Shown piece by piece: positions 18,765-61,964 of a DNA stretch of 64,000 nt (position 1 is its first letter; every line of letters begins with the position of its first letter). The position numbers and the translations under genes are program-made. The notes under the pieces are model-generated. The model worked only from the letters and a program-made list of their open reading frames with translations, was not told the DNA's origin and made no database searches. Origin of the DNA: a virus (taxonomy: Duplodnaviria > Caudoviricetes); the IMG/VR virus record IMGVR_UViG_3300025358_000002, positions 42,866 to 106,865 of that record; one strand, 5' to 3'.

Positions 18765-18908
18765 AAAGGATGTAAAGGTGGGGAGAACTTGGTCCCAGAT
18801 AGTGAGGCGGCTGAATGTTTATCGTCGTCTCCAGAAGGGCCCGGTCTTCCTCGGGGGTCGCAGTCGGTGTCATACTTTGACTCCCCCCGAGGCCCTTCTG
18901 TAAACATT

Positions 18909-19268
18909 ATGCAATTAACAATTGATTACAGCTGGCAAAACAATGCCACGTGCAGCACCATGGACCTCAATGATTTTTTCTTAGGTCACGGTAAAAAATA
19001 TTCAAAAGCAGTATCTGATGCGTGCACCTCTTGTCCGGTAAACAAAGAATGCTTAGACCATGCATTGAAGTATGAAGAGTATGGTTTTTGGGCTAACACC
19101 ACGCCGCAAAGACGAGTAAAGATGCGCAAGGAACTTGGCATCAAGGTAGAAAGCATCACGTACGAATCTCAAAAAGCTGCTGACAAAGATGCTGCCAAGA
19201 TAGAAGAGACGCGTGTTAAGATTAGAGGGCGCGGCAGAAAGCCACGCAATCTTCAGGAGCAGCTATGA
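18909..19268 (+). CDS. whiB: WhiB-family transcription factor with basic C-terminal tail
   Basis: W...C...F...CxxCPV..EC...GFWA.T; ends RGRGRKPR; ATG 18909 preferred over TTG 18789. Confidence 0.8.
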   Translation: MQLTIDYSWQNNATCSTMDLNDFFLGHGKKYSKAVSDACTSCPVNKECLDHALKYEEYGFWANTTPQRRVKMRKELGIKVESITYESQKAADKDAAKIEETRVKIRGRGRKPRNLQEQL

Positions 19269-29957: not shown

Positions 29958-30241
29958 TGTACAAATTCGAATTGCCATCCGTATCTTCAAAGAAGCACGA
30001 ATGGACTGAGTCAACGGTGATCAAAGTTGCTTTGTTCATTGTCATCTCTCTGTTCTCGCTGCTGCTATTGCCCATCGCCATTGTGGTGTACCCATTCATC
30101 TTTGCTTGGGAAGCAACCAATACGTTCCTCAAGGCCATGAGCAAGAAGGACCCTGTATCCAGCCACCTGCTTTCGTTCGACCCTAGCAAGTGGTCAGACA
30201 TGTCGCTGGACTTCAGCAACTGGTTCAAGGAGGAAAACTAA
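29957..30241 (+). CDS. membrane protein
   Basis: Long hydrophobic segment, coupled. Confidence 0.6.
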   Translation: MYKFELPSVSSKKHEWTESTVIKVALFIVISLFSLLLLPIAIVVYPFIFAWEATNTFLKAMSKKDPVSSHLLSFDPSKWSDMSLDFSNWFKEEN

Positions 30242-30618
30242 TGGAAACAAAAAAGCTTTCACAGTCCGGAGACATGGTCTTTGAACGTAACCTCGCTATC
30301 ATTGCTGGCAGGCGTCAGGAAGTACAGGTTTTCAGTGATGGGTTTGTTTACCAGGGATACCTCTGTGGCCTTGACGAGCAGTGGATTCAACTGTACGGTC
30401 ACGAAGAGAATGACGTAAACAACTACGATGCGAAGTGGCGTTTCCTCTTGATCAACAAGTCAAACGTATCAGCCATCGGTCCAACGGGTCAGAACCTAAC
30501 CGACCTCGATAGCGAGACACGTGAATGGGTGAGCAAGAAGATTCAAATCTTCTCAGACGTTTGTGATAACTTTGCATCAGTAAGAGGAGTTAAGAACAAT
30601 GGAAAAGAAAAGCTTTGA
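30241..30618 (+). CDS. Sm/Hfq-like fold protein (putative)
   Basis: VQVFSDGFVYQGYLCGLDEQWIQL (Sm1-like) and LLINKSNVSAIGP (Sm2-like); ATG 30241 with GGAGG RBS. Confidence 0.45.
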   Translation: METKKLSQSGDMVFERNLAIIAGRRQEVQVFSDGFVYQGYLCGLDEQWIQLYGHEENDVNNYDAKWRFLLINKSNVSAIGPTGQNLTDLDSETREWVSKKIQIFSDVCDNFASVRGVKNNGKEKL

Positions 30619-34284: not shown

Positions 34285-34337
34285 TATGAGTGCAGTAACC
34301 AAAATAGCCCTAGGGCTTCTAACAGAAAGACACCAAA

Positions 34338-35170: not shown

Positions 35171-35251
35171 CATAGAGCAGGCCAGTGGAGTCAGTCAGCA
35201 ATTTTTCACCTTCCTTTCGGTTGTTGATTTGACTCCACTGGTCACTCTATG
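35171..35251 (+). other. long RNA hairpin (about 31 bp) with anti-SD-like loop
   Basis: Arms 35171-35203 / 35219-35251, five G:U pairs on + strand; loop UUUCACCUUCCUUUC. Confidence 0.7.
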
Positions 35252-35257
35252 TATAGT
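35229..35257 (+). promoter_or_regulatory. SigA-type promoter for dnaE, overlapping the hairpin's right arm
   Basis: TTGACT-17nt-TATAGT, ATG 9 nt downstream. Confidence 0.65.
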
Positions 35258-35266
35258 GAGTGAGAT

Positions 35267-38200
35267 ATGGAAAAGTTAGTTCACCTTCACGTTCACACGG
35301 AGCACAGCTTCCTTGATGGATTGCAAACAGTAGACCAGCTCGTAGAGCGAGTAGTTTCCCTTGACCAAGAAGCCGTAGCCATCACCGACCATGGTGAGTG
35401 CAGCGGTCACCTTCGTCTTCAGCATGCAGCAGATGCAGCTGGAATCAAGCCCATCTTTGGTATGGAGGGTTACTTCACTGAAGATCGGTTCGACAAGACC
35501 GGTAAGAAGGGTGAGAACTACGACCACATGACCATCGTGGCGATGAACGCCAAGGGGCTTGAGAACCTCTGGTCATTGTCTAGCATGGCATACATTGAGG
35601 GTAGCTACTACGGCAACCCACGCTTTGACTGGGAACTCCTGGAACGTTACAACGAGGGACTGATCGTCACTGGTGGTTGCATGGGTGGCTGCATTGGTAA
35701 GCACCTCAAGGATGACGGCATCTACCAGCGTGCTGTTGAACGCATTGGACGCTACCAAGCTATCTTCGGTGATCGTTTTCACCTGGAGCTGCACACCTAC
35801 CTTGACCCTGAGAGCAACGAGTGGAACTTGCGAGTGGCCGAAGCAGCCATTGACTATAGTGTTCCATTGATTGCTGTCAGTGACGCACACTACGCAGCAC
35901 CTGACCAGTGGTTCGCACACGAACTCATGACCGCTGTTCAGATGGGCAAGACCATCGACGACCCTACACGATTCAGCTACGGACCTAACCAGCTGTGCAT
36001 CTTCTCAGAGGAAGAGACTCGTAGTCGTCTAAGTTATTTGCCTGAGTCTATCGTTGACCAGGCAATTAGTCGTACCAATGAGATCGCACAGATGTGTGAC
36101 GCTCGTGTACCTGGCGCACGCAAGATGCCAGTGTTCTACAACACTCCTGAGATGGACGAGCGTAAGCTTCGTGAGTCTGTCGAGGAAGGGTTCAAGCGCA
36201 AGATCGAAGGCCACGTGTCAGAGGAAATGCTTCCTGTGTATCGTGAGCGTGTCGAATATGAAATGGATGTCATCATCAAGCGCGGTTTCCCTGGATACTT
36301 TTTAACAGTACAAGACATTATCAATTGGAGTAAAAATGAAAACTTTTTGGTTGGTCCTAGCCGCGGTTCAGTCGGCGGAAGCCTCCTTGCTTACGTTATG
36401 GACATCACTGAAGTCGATCCAATCCCCTCAGGCCTTATTTTTGAGCGGTTTCTTAATCCTGAGCGCGTCTCTATGCCTGATATTGACATTGATATGCCCA
36501 AGCTAGAGCGGGGCATGGTTCGTGATTACCTGGAGCGTAAGTATGGTCGCAACAACATTGCTTCCATCGGTACGCTGAATACACTGGGTGCACGACAGGC
36601 TATCCGTGACCTGTGCCGTGGCATGGGTATCAGCAAGGACGATGCAGCAGCAATGTCTGACATCATCGATGACGACTGGAACATCAAGAACCGTGGTGCT
36701 GACTGGGCTACCGTATACAAGCAGTACCGCTCAGAGTACGCACCGTGGGTTACCAAGTACCCACAGCTGTTCGAGACACTGCCTGAGGTGGTCAACCACA
36801 TTCGTCATGCCAGCGCACATGCTGCAGGCATTGTGATCAGCAAGGAACCACTGGTTGGTTCCATGCCACTACGCTACAGCCCAACCAACGATGACATCCG
36901 TACGCAGTTTGACATGGGTGACATCGACGAGCTGGGATTTGTAAAGATTGACTTGCTTGGTCTACGTACGTTGAGTACGCTGATGGCTACGCTTGACCTT
37001 ATCAAGGAGAACAACGATGGCGCCCTACCTTTCGATCATTTCTACGAATGGAACAACAACTGGTCCAAGTATTACGACGACAAAGATGTCTGGGACTCCA
37101 TCGGCACCGGTCACAATATTGGATGCTTCCAGATCGAGACAGGTTCCCTTAGAAACCTGGTTAAGCGATTCCTCCCCCGCAACATCGAAGACCTCTGCAC
37201 AATGATTGCCATCTACCGTCCGGGTATTACTCGAGCGGTGGACGCAGAGACTGGCCTGAATCTTCTGGAGATGTACATGCAGAAGCGAGAGGGCAAGCGC
37301 AAAGTAAAGTACAAGCACCCTAAGCTCGAGAAGATCCTCGGTGTATCGTACGGTAGCTTTGTGTACCAGGAGCAGATCATGGAGACGTGTGTCGAGCTGG
37401 CTGGGTACACCATTGTAGAGACTGACCGTGTTCGCAAGGCAGTGGCCAAGTCTAACTACGAAGACATGGTGGAAGAAGCTGAGATCTTTGTGCGCAAGTG
37501 TGTGGACAACGGCATCAGCACCGAGGTTGCTAAATCCATCTTCGATGACATGCGTGCCTTTGGTATGTATGGATTCAACAAGAGCCACGGATATGGTTAT
37601 TCTATGTTAACCTATTGGACTGCATGGATTAAGCACCACTACCCACGTGAGTACATGACCGCCCTGTTCCGCACGAACCCCAAGGACAGCGTTGTCTACA
37701 CACGTGAAGCTCGTCGCATGGGCATTGAGGTGTTGGGACCAGACATCAACGAGAGCGGTGGTAACTTCACCCTCACCAGTTCTGGCAGTATCCGATATGG
37801 CTTGAACAGTGTCAAGTACATCTCTGGGTCTGCTCAAGAACTGCAGAAGCTTGGACCTTTCTCTAGCATGGAAGACTTCGTAGCACGTGTTCCTTCCAAG
37901 AAGGTAAACAAGCGAGCAGTAATTGCCATGATTAAGTGTGGTGTGTTTGATAGCATATGTGGAGACGCCAGGACAGCTATGAGGCAGTACCTGGAAGCCC
38001 GTAAGGAGAAGAATCTTGATAGCGTTTGCCGTAATGATTGTCTACATTGCTTGGGTCATCTTAGCGTGTTTGATTGCATCGTGGATGTACAAGAGAATGT
38101 CATGGCACGTGGCCAGAACGAACACGAACTACTGGGAACTATGGTTAGTGTTGATCCTCTTGCTGATTATCTTGCATTGATTGAAGAAGAGCACAACTTC

Positions 38201-38542
38201 CCGGGAGAGAAGAAGATGTTCCAAGGAGAGAAGGCTATGATTGGTGGCATGATCTCGCAGGTTAAAGAGCTGGTCACCAAGAAGGGAAAGAACCCTGGAG
38301 CAGAGATGTGCCAGGTGTGGATCGAGCTACCCATTGACAGTGTTGAAGACGAGTTGTCTATCGATGACGAGGAAGCCACCAAGGATGACAACGTACAGGT
38401 CGTAGCATTCCCTGATACCTACAAACGTATCAAGGGTGACATCCAGGTAGGCACTCCAGTCCTGGTGCAGGTAGAAAAGCTCCGCGATGGGCTGAGTCTC
38501 AAGAGCATCTTCCGTCTTGACAAGTTGAAAGAAGCCTGCTAG
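35267..38542 (+). CDS. dnaE: DNA polymerase III alpha subunit
   Basis: PHP domain HLHVHTEHS/TDHG, RGS, FERFLNPER.SMPDIDID, KIDLLGL, YGFNKSH; no intein seen. Confidence 0.97.
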   Translation: MEKLVHLHVHTEHSFLDGLQTVDQLVERVVSLDQEAVAITDHGECSGHLRLQHAADAAGIKPIFGMEGYFTEDRFDKTGKKGENYDHMTIVAMNAKGLENLWSLSSMAYIEGSYYGNPRFDWELLERYNEGLIVTGGCMGGCIGKHLKDDGIYQRAVERIGRYQAIFGDRFHLELHTYLDPESNEWNLRVAEAAIDYSVPLIAVSDAHYAAPDQWFAHELMTAVQMGKTIDDPTRFSYGPNQLCIFSEEETRSRLSYLPESIVDQAISRTNEIAQMCDARVPGARKMPVFYNTPEMDERKLRESVEEGFKRKIEGHVSEEMLPVYRERVEYEMDVIIKRGFPGYFLTVQDIINWSKNENFLVGPSRGSVGGSLLAYVMDITEVDPIPSGLIFERFLNPERVSMPDIDIDMPKLERGMVRDYLERKYGRNNIASIGTLNTLGARQAIRDLCRGMGISKDDAAAMSDIIDDDWNIKNRGADWATVYKQYRSEYAPWVTKYPQLFETLPEVVNHIRHASAHAAGIVISKEPLVGSMPLRYSPTNDDIRTQFDMGDIDELGFVKIDLLGLRTLSTLMATLDLIKENNDGALPFDHFYEWNNNWSKYYDDKDVWDSIGTGHNIGCFQIETGSLRNLVKRFLPRNIEDLCTMIAIYRPGITRAVDAETGLNLLEMYMQKREGKRKVKYKHPKLEKILGVSYGSFVYQEQIMETCVELAGYTIVETDRVRKAVAKSNYEDMVEEAEIFVRKCVDNGISTEVAKSIFDDMRAFGMYGFNKSHGYGYSMLTYWTAWIKHHYPREYMTALFRTNPKDSVVYTREARRMGIEVLGPDINESGGNFTLTSSGSIRYGLNSVKYISGSAQELQKLGPFSSMEDFVARVPSKKVNKRAVIAMIKCGVFDSICGDARTAMRQYLEARKEKNLDSVCRNDCLHCLGHLSVFDCIVDVQENVMARGQNEHELLGTMVSVDPLADYLALIEEEHNFPGEKKMFQGEKAMIGGMISQVKELVTKKGKNPGAEMCQVWIELPIDSVEDELSIDDEEATKDDNVQVVAFPDTYKRIKGDIQVGTPVLVQVEKLRDGLSLKSIFRLDKLKEAC

Positions 38543-43941: not shown

Positions 43942-44180
43942 AGGGTTGCGCATGGCCACCAGTATTGCTGATGGTTTCTATCCTCTCAGTTCTTACCGTA
44001 ATTAATGCTGAGTACCCTTGGGAACTGACGTTTGTATTTGTTCCTATCATTTGTCTGATTGCATTCTATAAATGGCTGGATGACCACAACCTCTAGCTTG
44101 AAAGGATGGTTTTAAATGTTAGTTGCAATTCTATCGACGTTGCTTTTTATTGTGTCGATTTCTAATCTTAGGCGGGGTCG

Positions 44181-44423
44181 ATGACCTCCACCGAACGCCA
44201 AGTTTTACGAGAAAAGCACAGTGAGGACGAAAAGAATCAATGTTCTTACTGCCTGTATGAAAAGTCTCCCTGCGACGCAATCAAGGTACTGGATGCGCTC
44301 GATGAGGCAGACCGGCGAGCAGTGGCAAACTACGAACGTGGATACGATGACGGTTATAAGGGGTCTGTTGCCGACGCCGAATGGGATCACTGGGCTGATG
44401 GAGTGGACGATGACCAACCCTAA
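44181..44423 (+). CDS. small Zn-binding protein
   Basis: LREKH...CSYC...PCDAIKVLDA, similar to 33109-33261. Confidence 0.55.
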   Translation: MTSTERQVLREKHSEDEKNQCSYCLYEKSPCDAIKVLDALDEADRRAVANYERGYDDGYKGSVADAEWDHWADGVDDDQP

Positions 44424-61544: not shown

Positions 61545-61964
61545 TTATATTCCTTGCTTAGATGCGCGACGCGCTTTTGTTTTATCCCGATTACATTGAA
61601 TACAGTAACGGGCTTTTCTTACTTTACCCCACACTCTACCATAAATCTTGTAGTTGTGACCCCGAGGACAGTGAGTTTTTGCGGCAGCGGCGCGGAGATT
61701 GTTCTCTCTCACCGTTACAGCCTCTAGGTGCTCAGGGTTAACACATAGTATATTCCTGCATAGATGATCGATATGAAGACCTACAGGGATCTCACCCCTA
61801 AATAGGATATAAGAAGCCCTATGAGCCCTATATAGCTTACCACCCATACGAAATACACCATAGCCATCCGCACCTATAGCAGCAGTCCATTCCCAACACA
61901 TAGAACTATTAACATTGTACTTAGCATTGAAGCGATCTATAGAGTTGTGTGCCTGTTGGTTCAT
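61545..61964 (-). CDS. HNH homing endonuclease
   Basis: CWEW...GYG...AHR...DHLCRN..CVNPEHL...EN; THCPRGH. Confidence 0.9.
   Translation of the reverse strand: MNQQAHNSIDRFNAKYNVNSSMCWEWTAAIGADGYGVFRMGGKLYRAHRASYILFRGEIPVGLHIDHLCRNILCVNPEHLEAVTVRENNLRAAAAKTHCPRGHNYKIYGRVWGKVRKARYCIQCNRDKTKARRASKQGI

Follow-up and report, generated by a model that had tools for sequence, protein, structure and literature searches.

The DNA considered here, called the window throughout, is a 64-kb stretch (64,000 nucleotides, nt) forming the right-hand part of a 106,865-bp virus record of IMG/VR, IMGVR_UViG_3300025358_000002. Its GC content is 47%. Nearly all of its genes, which were called with a crude script retaining the longest open reading frames (ORFs), are on the + strand. 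Our subject is the 101-nt spacer separating a gene for a single-stranded-DNA-binding (SSB)-like protein, ssb, from dnaE, the gene for the alpha subunit of DNA polymerase III. The transcript of this spacer is predicted to fold into a long hairpin, the apical loop of which resembles the anti-Shine–Dalgarno (anti-SD) tail of 16S ribosomal RNA (rRNA). The hairpin lies in a replication module (DnaB-like helicase, DnaG-like primase, SSB-like protein, DnaE and RecA), and its neighbours are all on the + strand. The features of the locus are the following.

34318..34337, + strand: ribosome-binding region of ssb, ending ACAGAAAGACACCAAA; its AGAAAG-type Shine–Dalgarno (SD) sequence is complementary to the extreme 3' end of 16S rRNA and to the CUUUC part of the hairpin loop
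34338..35165, + strand: SSB-like gene, 275 amino acids (aa) with an acidic C-terminal tail; PHROG profiles phrog_1607, phrog_14578 and phrog_9721, each 'single strand DNA binding protein'
35171..35251, + strand: predicted long RNA hairpin with 31 pairs (five of them G:U), an internal loop CA/A and one bulged U; it starts 6 nt past the ssb stop codon
35171-35203, 35204-35218 and 35219-35251, + strand: left arm, apical loop and right arm of this hairpin
35204..35218, + strand: apical loop UUUCACCUUCCUUUC (15 nt), the anti-SD mimic, unpaired in both the minimum-free-energy (MFE) and the centroid structures
35229..35257, + strand: sigma-70-type promoter TTGACT-17-TATAGT for dnaE, 10/12 in a consensus scan
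35229-35234 and 35252-35257, + strand: -35 hexamer TTGACT and -10 hexamer TATAGT; the -35 hexamer and the spacer are inside the right arm of the hairpin
35267..38542, + strand: dnaE (Pol III alpha, 1091 aa), with Pfam PHP, DNA_pol3_alpha, finger and HHH_6 domains

The SSB-like ORF had no Pfam match, and its identity comes from the PHROG profiles only. Phages of Gordonia and Mycobacterium have homologues that carry the annotation SSB, and there too dnaE is the next gene.

A long hairpin behind ssb

All structures described here are MFE predictions. In a 131-nt context the MFE is -48.7 kcal/mol (z = -4.4), and 0 of 200 shuffled sequences folded as well. The same 80 nt read on the opposite strand give a fold that is 8 kcal/mol weaker. 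The hairpin is among the strongest local folds of the 106.9-kb record and is the top simple intergenic hairpin there. Its stem comprises 24 consecutive pairs with one bulge and 7 more pairs, and 12 of the 31 are G-C. A first-pass annotation of the window, made from its letters, had described a stem of about 31 bp between ssb and dnaE, with five G:U pairs and no U-tract; folding and direct reading bear this out. The stem is followed by GUAUAGUGAGUG, a U-tract is absent, and a terminator scan made no call. Intrinsic terminators have a U-tract, a G+C-rich stem of typically 5-15 bp and a loop of 3-8 nt, traits that this structure of 31 pairs and a 15-nt loop does not show. It does offer the 20 bp or so, or more, of near-continuous double-stranded RNA that makes a substrate for RNase III. 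With no U-tract and a stem of 20-31 bp, a 3' stabiliser or an RNase III-type processing site would be likelier than a canonical intrinsic terminator. Known RNA families gave no lead: searches with Rfam, including the 6C family (RF01066), found no match at E <= 0.5 in the loci of ten relatives, and in the window returned only chance-level matches to models shaped like microRNA precursors.

The loop UUUCACCUUCCUUUC is the 16S 3' tail CACCUCCUUUC with one inserted U, just as the first-pass annotation had put it. Direct reading sets CACCU+U+CCUUUC of the loop beside CACCUCCUUUCU of the 16S tail. In many Actinomycetota the encoded 16S rRNA has ...GGATCACCTCCTTTCT as its 3' end, and the same tail is documented in several other phyla (PMC6288834). 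The host is placed in Actinomycetota by a WhiB gene in the window (18789-19265) and by the DnaE and SSB relatives, without exception from phages that infect Mycobacterium, Gordonia and Rhodococcus. The loop starts 39 nt past the ssb stop codon and lies about 870 nt downstream of the ssb ribosome-binding site (RBS) on the same mRNA, so that the 3' untranslated region (UTR) of ssb holds a C/U-rich, anti-SD-like motif of the kind known from icaR. In the window no second copy of the loop motif was found; it is unique there.

The loop outlasts its stem among relatives

Protein-guided searches yielded 27 loci through DnaE and 31 through SSB in IMG/VR, and 77 from JGI metagenomes; the contig names suggest humic or bog lakes. 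The ssb stop codon was located at each locus, which gave 130 usable loci with 51 distinct downstream sequences. Their SSB proteins are 62-100% identical to that of the window, plus one outlier at 32%. In nearly every relative a strong hairpin of 19-31 pairs lies a few nt past the ssb stop, and most of these hairpins also lack a U-tract. The structure is kept whether dnaE or a Cpn10/GroES gene comes next. Indeed, at three loci where Cpn10 follows (L002, L070 and L074) the hairpin and a CU-rich loop are kept and the promoter hexamers are absent. The intervening Cpn10/GroES gene, of 96 aa (Pfam PF00166, E = 1e-25), is found between the ssb hairpin and dnaE at L002:2649-2939 (+), at L070, L074, L012 and at others, with AGAAAGAA as its RBS; the phage of the window has no such gene at the ssb-dnaE position.

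The fold has a polarity. The + strand is the more stable one in 41 of 50 long ssb 3' hairpins (mean -27.3 versus -21.6 kcal/mol; Wilcoxon p = 5e-8), which agrees with the + strand RNA originally read from the G:U pairs of the window alone. Among the nine closest variants of the window, double compensatory changes are seen in 8 of 21 alignable pairs, and several stem pairs alternate G:U with G:C or A:U. Stem sequences are otherwise unconserved among the relatives. Variation by compensatory and wobble changes argues against an operator in duplex DNA, and judged from these comparisons the element is a folded single strand of sense polarity at the 3' end of ssb.

An anti-SD-like tract occupies the apical loop in about 28 of the 51 distinct regions, with the consensus yCCUyCCUUUCUg among lineages. 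In at least 12 regions with such loops the left arms (22 nt) are mutually unrelated. The following loops belong to this class.

Window: CACCUUCCUUUCG
L002: CCCUUCCUUUCUG
L004: CUUCCUCCCUUUCC
L067: UUCCUCCCCCUUUC
L069: UCCCUCCUUUCUG
L098: UUCCUCCUUUCUGG
L101: GCCUCCUUUCUGG
L103: ACCCUCCUUUCGCCUCCUU
L045: UUCCUUCCUCG

The exact 10-mer CCUCCUUUCU occurs in L069, L098 and L101, on stem arms that are unrelated. Matches of at least 9/10 to CCTCCTTTCT were found in 7 of the 51 regions, all of them in unpaired apical positions; dinucleotide shuffles gave 0.3 and the reverse complement 0. A further control permuted each family's own loop bases and thereby kept the pyrimidine richness. Five families with at least 9/10 matches stand against 0.22 expected and three exact matches against 0.017, and no shuffle out of 20,000 reached either figure. 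What stands out is therefore the order of the bases in the 16S tail, beyond mere C+U content. Elsewhere in these genomes the motif is scarce: across six genomes of the group, complete or nearly so, few sense-oriented anti-SD-like 7-mers lie between genes, almost every intergenic one being the antisense of an ordinary RBS, and in the window's own genome the ssb hairpin is the sole clear case.

The anti-SD-like loop may also stand apart from the long stem. In a ten-member group AAUACCCUCCUCAGG is carried by a separate 8-bp hairpin in front of the long one, and in the L007 group a short 8-bp anti-SD-like hairpin and a long hairpin with a CUUGAUGACAC loop stand in tandem. The latter arrangement indicates that long stem and anti-SD-like loop are separable modules, which are merged in the window.

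Taken across these alignments, the loop is conserved more than the stem. This reverses the outcome that the first-pass annotation had named as fatal to its proposal, a conserved stem with a variable loop. Nor is the resemblance to the 16S tail a coincidence: in many relatives the motif comes back in the apical loop of hairpins whose stems are unrelated. The covariation that it had called for was seen in the compensatory changes of the stem and in a loop that outlasts it; universality of the loop was not, as we discuss below.

Cultured phages are more remote. When the ssb-dnaE region was searched as DNA against the genomes of cultured phages there was no match, the relatives there being distant and recognizable at the protein level only. 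Synteny of ssb and dnaE is kept in Gordonia phage Stormageddon and in Mycobacterium phages Phrappuccino, Specks and Myrna. Their ssb-dnaE spacers hold hairpins, some with C-rich loops, which is not decisive in genomes so rich in GC. In Stormageddon, whose genome is GC-rich, the spacer (L168:1840-1895) has a 14-bp hairpin after ssb with the C-rich apical region CACUCCCCCCAGGG.

A dnaE promoter in the descending arm

The first-pass annotation had also noticed TTGACT-17-TATAGT in the right arm of the hairpin, and the consensus scan found it. A promoter of the form TTGAyT-17/18-TATAnT, then about 9 nt to the ATG, is present in all eight lineages with dnaE directly next (the window, L004, L067, L060, L069, L103, L118 and L129), despite their differing stems, and is absent where Cpn10 follows ssb. 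On this comparative evidence the dnaE promoter is real and is accommodated within the descending arm, and the hairpin is not there for the promoter's sake. The overlap proposed at the outset thus stands as far as the arm holds the -35 hexamer and the spacer, but the hairpin is independent of the promoter: it persists with its loop before the GroES-like gene.

The ATG of dnaE (35267) comes 9 nt past the -10 hexamer, with no SD sequence in between. This geometry predicts a dnaE leader of 0-3 nt, devoid of an SD. It had been suggested that leaderless phage messages would escape a loop that masks SDs. For dnaE the geometry is of the right type, but as a strategy the idea is weak. Genome-wide, leaderless-type geometry is limited to dnaE and one HNH endonuclease gene, listed here.

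61545-61964, - strand: HNH endonuclease gene (Pfam HNH_3), with TTGACA-17-TAGCGT ending 6 nt before its ATG

At least 90 of the 137 ORFs have an SD-like match, and most phage genes are SD-led. With two leaderless-type genes only, the escape would apply to dnaE at most, not to a whole phage programme.

What the loop may do

The RBSs of these phages are of several kinds. That of ssb is AGAAAG(A) or AAAGGA(A) in the phage group, placed 8-9 nt before the ATG, and other phage genes have AAGGAG-type RBSs. The two sites that had been cited as complementary to the loop do exist, GGAAAGGAG before 38571 and AAAGAAAGGAAAG before 60984 (minus strand), and the loop is the complement of the RBSs used by these phages. 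AGAAAG(A) is common in the group (window 34324-34330, and many gene starts of relatives); it pairs with the extreme 16S 3' end CUUUCU and not with the CCUCC core. Upstream of the ssb RBS, 20 nt before the start codon, there is also a perfect 12-bp palindrome, AGCCCTAGGGCT (window 34306-34317, +), kept as AGCCCNAGGGCT in many relatives, which may form a small 5' hairpin or serve as an operator for a protein.

A candidate partner is encoded in the window.

30190..30618, + strand: phage Hfq-like protein gene, 142 aa (Pfam PF23874 Phage_Hfq, 36.9 bits against a cut-off of 24.2)

To our knowledge, the host phylum is generally said to lack Hfq. The phage protein is a possible RNA partner of the hairpin, as a matter of context only. 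A Phage_Hfq homologue above the cut-off was found in 18 of the 18 related phage records searched; being universal, the gene lends no differential support to a role in trans, and its co-occurrence with one loop class or another is uninformative.

The account that we tentatively favour, and would not call probable as a whole, makes the hairpin a stabilising or RNase III-type element of the ssb 3' UTR, the loop of which pairs with purine-rich RBSs in cis or in trans. The stem would end the abundant ssb transcript, protect it, or both. The exposed loop, which has the same sequence as the tail by which ribosomes dock, would pair with RBSs such as AGAAAG, AAAGGA and GGAG, and is probably a selected device for masking them. 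In the most economical version the loop would pair in cis and find its partner on its own transcript, at the RBS of ssb or of neighbouring cistrons; translation would be throttled, the duplex would be marked for decay, and SSB dosage would be controlled in this way. In a second version a stable 3' fragment, once released, would act on SD-led mRNAs of the phage or of the host, possibly aided by the phage Hfq-like protein. Transcribed from the promoter in the right arm with almost no leader and no SD, dnaE should be insensitive to both. Sequence does not distinguish cis from trans action. A role in trans would be compatible with the long nuclease-resistant stem, with the phage Hfq-like gene and with the C-rich-loop small RNAs (sRNAs) of Gram-positive bacteria and actinobacteria (PMC6486639).

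Precedents come from several bacteria. The motif UCCCCUG in the 3' UTR of icaR pairs with the SD of its own mRNA, blocks ribosome loading and makes a substrate for RNase III (PMC3868564). In Bacillus subtilis, anti-SD-like 8-mers placed hundreds of nt downstream pair with the RBS and lower both the stability of the mRNA and its translation; they are depleted from genes (PMC12697547). On the strength of these two experimentally established cases we deem SD pairing the most probable action of the loop. A conserved, loop-exposed, near-perfect anti-SD copy on the ssb mRNA is indeed expected to act, and its being conserved implies an action that is of use, limiting SSB dosage for example. The actinobacterial 6C sRNA works through C-rich loops (PMC6486639).

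The likeness to these systems has limits. A C/U-rich anti-SD-like 3'-UTR motif is shared with the 3'-UTR/5'-UTR interaction of icaR in Staphylococcus aureus (PMC3868564) and of hbs in B. subtilis (PMC5737220), and by analogy one would expect an icaR-like outcome, ribosome loading being blocked and an RNase III substrate being formed. Here, by contrast, the motif is displayed at the apex of a very long hairpin starting 6 nt past the stop codon, and not 260 nt downstream as in icaR; it copies the whole 16S tail, not UCCCC; it is phage-encoded, in an actinobacterial setting; and its putative pairing with its own RBS extends over 5-7 nt. Unpaired C/U-rich loops are also a feature of S. aureus RNAIII (including its terminator hairpin) and Rsa RNAs, of RsaE/RoxS and of the actinobacterial 6C/B11 (PMC6486639, PMC10470900). 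Such RNAs bind the G-rich SDs of their targets without long complementarity, and 6C does so in Actinobacteria without a chaperone. They differ from the present case in being independent sRNA genes with several loops, where we have one loop at the 3' end of an mRNA, known from sequence alone and resembling CCUCCUUUCU rather than poly-C or UCCC. Long-range repression in B. subtilis likewise involves a pyrimidine-rich anti-SD-like sequence far downstream of the RBS (PMC12697547). There the 8-mers are deleterious and depleted, whereas here the sequence is conserved and displayed in a loop, which would imply deliberate use.

Phages, too, offer parallels. The R sites of T7 and the sib retroregulator of lambda are RNase III hairpins, long, nearly perfect and without a U-tract, at the 3' ends of genes, and processing leaves a protective 3' stem. 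As here, they are long intercistronic hairpins of early or middle phage operons; they are defined by cleavage and not by the sequence of their loop, while cleavage by RNase III is putative in our case. We know of no anti-SD loop in T7 R sites or in lambda sib. In T4, the RegB endoribonuclease cuts GGAG and inactivates SDs, thus reprogramming translation. It is also a phage device that inactivates SDs, but a protein enzyme, where pairing by an RNA is proposed here. Set beside icaR, RNAIII, RsaE and 6C, to which its action would come closest, the present element stands apart in being phage-encoded, in its long hairpin adjacent to the stop codon, in its full 16S tail and in the arm that it shares with a promoter, its function being inferred.

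Several observations weigh against pairing of the loop with RBSs, or against the way in which we read its conservation. Complementarity between the loop and the ssb RBS spans 5-7 nt (GAAAG/CUUUC), no better than with any SD. No covariation between RBS (AGAAAG or AAAGGA) and loop type was detected among the relatives, and in the L007 group an AGAAAG RBS goes with a CCCUCCUC loop that is unable to pair with it. Apart from ordinary SD-like sites, no longer stretch that complements the loop was found in the window, a 10/12 match at 44100 coming closest. About 45% of the relatives have no anti-SD-like loop and bear other conserved motifs at the same position, CUUGAUGACAC(U) or (GGGNN)AACCCGACAC, sometimes both, within the first 130 nt past the ssb stop; the function of the loop would then be either dispensable or one among alternatives. 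The stem families may descend from one ancestor, and the recurrence could reflect strong conservation of one ancestral loop. The statistics would in that case measure purifying selection on the loop, not convergence; both readings imply function. The G:T asymmetry does not separate + strand RNA from a + strand single-stranded DNA hairpin, which it would equally favour. Finally, the 16S tail used for comparison is assumed, and may not be the mature 3' end of the host's rRNA.

Three side observations belong to these subjects. The site at 44100-44200 (+) is an intergenic GAAAGGATGG followed by an ORF of about 27 codons for a hydrophobic peptide, and is the best, though weak, extended complement of the loop. 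Pairing of the loop with the last codons of ssb (GGAAGAUG) was considered and, not being kept in L004, is treated as chance. GACAC is the ending shared by CUUGAUGACAC(U) and (GGGNN)AACCCGACAC, motifs that are sometimes found in tandem hairpins (L034, L038, L052, L036 and L049, for example); a search for complements of CUUGAUGACAC found none, only the loops themselves and one same-sense copy at G011:96792-96803.

Among the other explanations, the one that survives best, although we consider it unlikely, makes the loop a site for a protein (the SSB-like protein itself, the phage Hfq-like protein or ribosomal protein S1) and gives the stem the mere task of presenting it. If SSB were the ligand, it would regulate or protect its own mRNA through this site, much as T4 gp32 does. 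SSB, Hfq and S1 all favour unstructured U/C-rich RNA, and the loops, of 13-19 nt, are rich in pyrimidines. The element is invariably found behind ssb, an Hfq-like gene accompanies it in 18 of 18 relatives, and the other loop classes, CUUGAUGACAC and AACCCGACAC, look like sequence-specific recognition motifs and not like SD complements. Generic binding by these proteins, however, needs no particular base order, and it is precisely order that matches the 16S tail beyond pyrimidine composition (the five families against 0.22). Moreover, known translational operators of phage SSBs, such as that of T4 gene 32, are in the 5' leader, whereas this element is in the 3' UTR.

Somewhat less likely still is that the loop sequence has no function of its own, and that we are dealing with a pure 3'-end element between the ssb and dnaE units, be it a factor-independent 'I-shaped' terminator, a barrier to exonucleases or an RNase III site. 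A long stem past the stop codon in nearly all relatives, even those without an anti-SD-like loop, speaks for such an element, and a promoter immediately follows in the window's phage. Stems of 20 bp or more suit RNase III, and these fit its substrates. What remains unexplained is why the loop should be conserved more than the stem, with an exact 10-mer on three unrelated stems, and why in the L007 group the anti-SD-like loop should occupy a separate 8-bp hairpin beside the long one. The absent U-tract and the silent terminator scan also speak against it.

It is improbable, to a slightly greater degree, that the hairpin is a phage-made competitor or decoy of the ribosomal docking tail, either masking host SDs of the GGAGG type or soaking up a host nuclease that attacks the anti-SD. 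The active species would be an abundant, nuclease-resistant 3' fragment of the ssb mRNA, which the ring of the phage Hfq-like protein might carry. In the masking version host translation would be shut off, and phage messages with AGAAAG-type RBSs or without leader would be spared. Were either version true, translation initiation would be taken over or protected by means of an RNA, something not yet described in a phage. The narrower idea, that the loop titrates a factor recognizing or cleaving the anti-SD (a MazF-type toxin cutting UCCUU, for example, or an abortive-infection nuclease) and so protects ribosomes during infection, seems quite improbable to us. MazF-mt3 of Mycobacterium tuberculosis reportedly cleaves the 16S anti-SD at UCCUU, and the mimicry spans the whole tail CCUCCUUUCU, terminal bases included. 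The proposal is purely speculative; the loop of the window has an inserted U, others deviate (CCCUCCUC, UUCCUUCCUCG), and many relatives have no such loop.

An element acting as DNA is very improbable, whether as an operator with inverted repeats that overlaps the -35 hexamer of dnaE, as a cruciform or as a hairpin for single-strand initiation or an origin. Its place among dnaB, dnaG, ssb, dnaE and recA, the -35 hexamer in the right arm and the G:T asymmetry noted above, which does not tell + strand DNA from RNA, would suit it. However, the stems are unconserved and vary by compensatory and wobble changes, as a folded single strand does and protein-DNA half-sites do not; the hairpin persists where there is no promoter and starts a fixed few nt past the ssb stop; and mimicry of an rRNA tail has no rationale on DNA. 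We therefore rejected the palindromic operator, on account of the stem variation and of this persistence. The least plausible reading, also rejected, takes the minus strand, where the loop reads GAAAGGAAGGUG, as a strong SD for a small antisense ORF (5-nt spacer, then a TTG that opens an 11-codon frame) or as a ribosome-binding decoy: the frame is not conserved, L004 having no start codon at the matching place, the minus strand gives the weaker fold in 41 of 50 cases, and the neighbouring genes are all on the + strand.

None of these explanations, it seems to us, accounts for an order-specific mimicry of 16S rRNA as simply as does pairing with SDs. Anti-SD-like sequences in bacterial mRNAs are normally harmful and selected against. 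A group of uncultured freshwater actinobacterial phages conserves instead a near-exact copy of the 16S tail, and displays it in a hairpin loop behind one particular replication gene that is highly expressed. The locus also illustrates that a -35 hexamer can sit in, and co-evolve with, the descending arm of the 3' hairpin of the preceding gene. The 51 natural variants make a ready mutational series, and the distant cultured relatives are possible experimental entry points, with the Stormageddon hairpin as a possible counterpart, though at so high a GC content their loops are by themselves uninformative. If the loop does pair with RBSs, it would be among the very few phage 3'-UTR riboregulators known and among the first in actinophages, the hosts of which are said to have no Hfq, while these phages bring an Hfq-like protein of their own.

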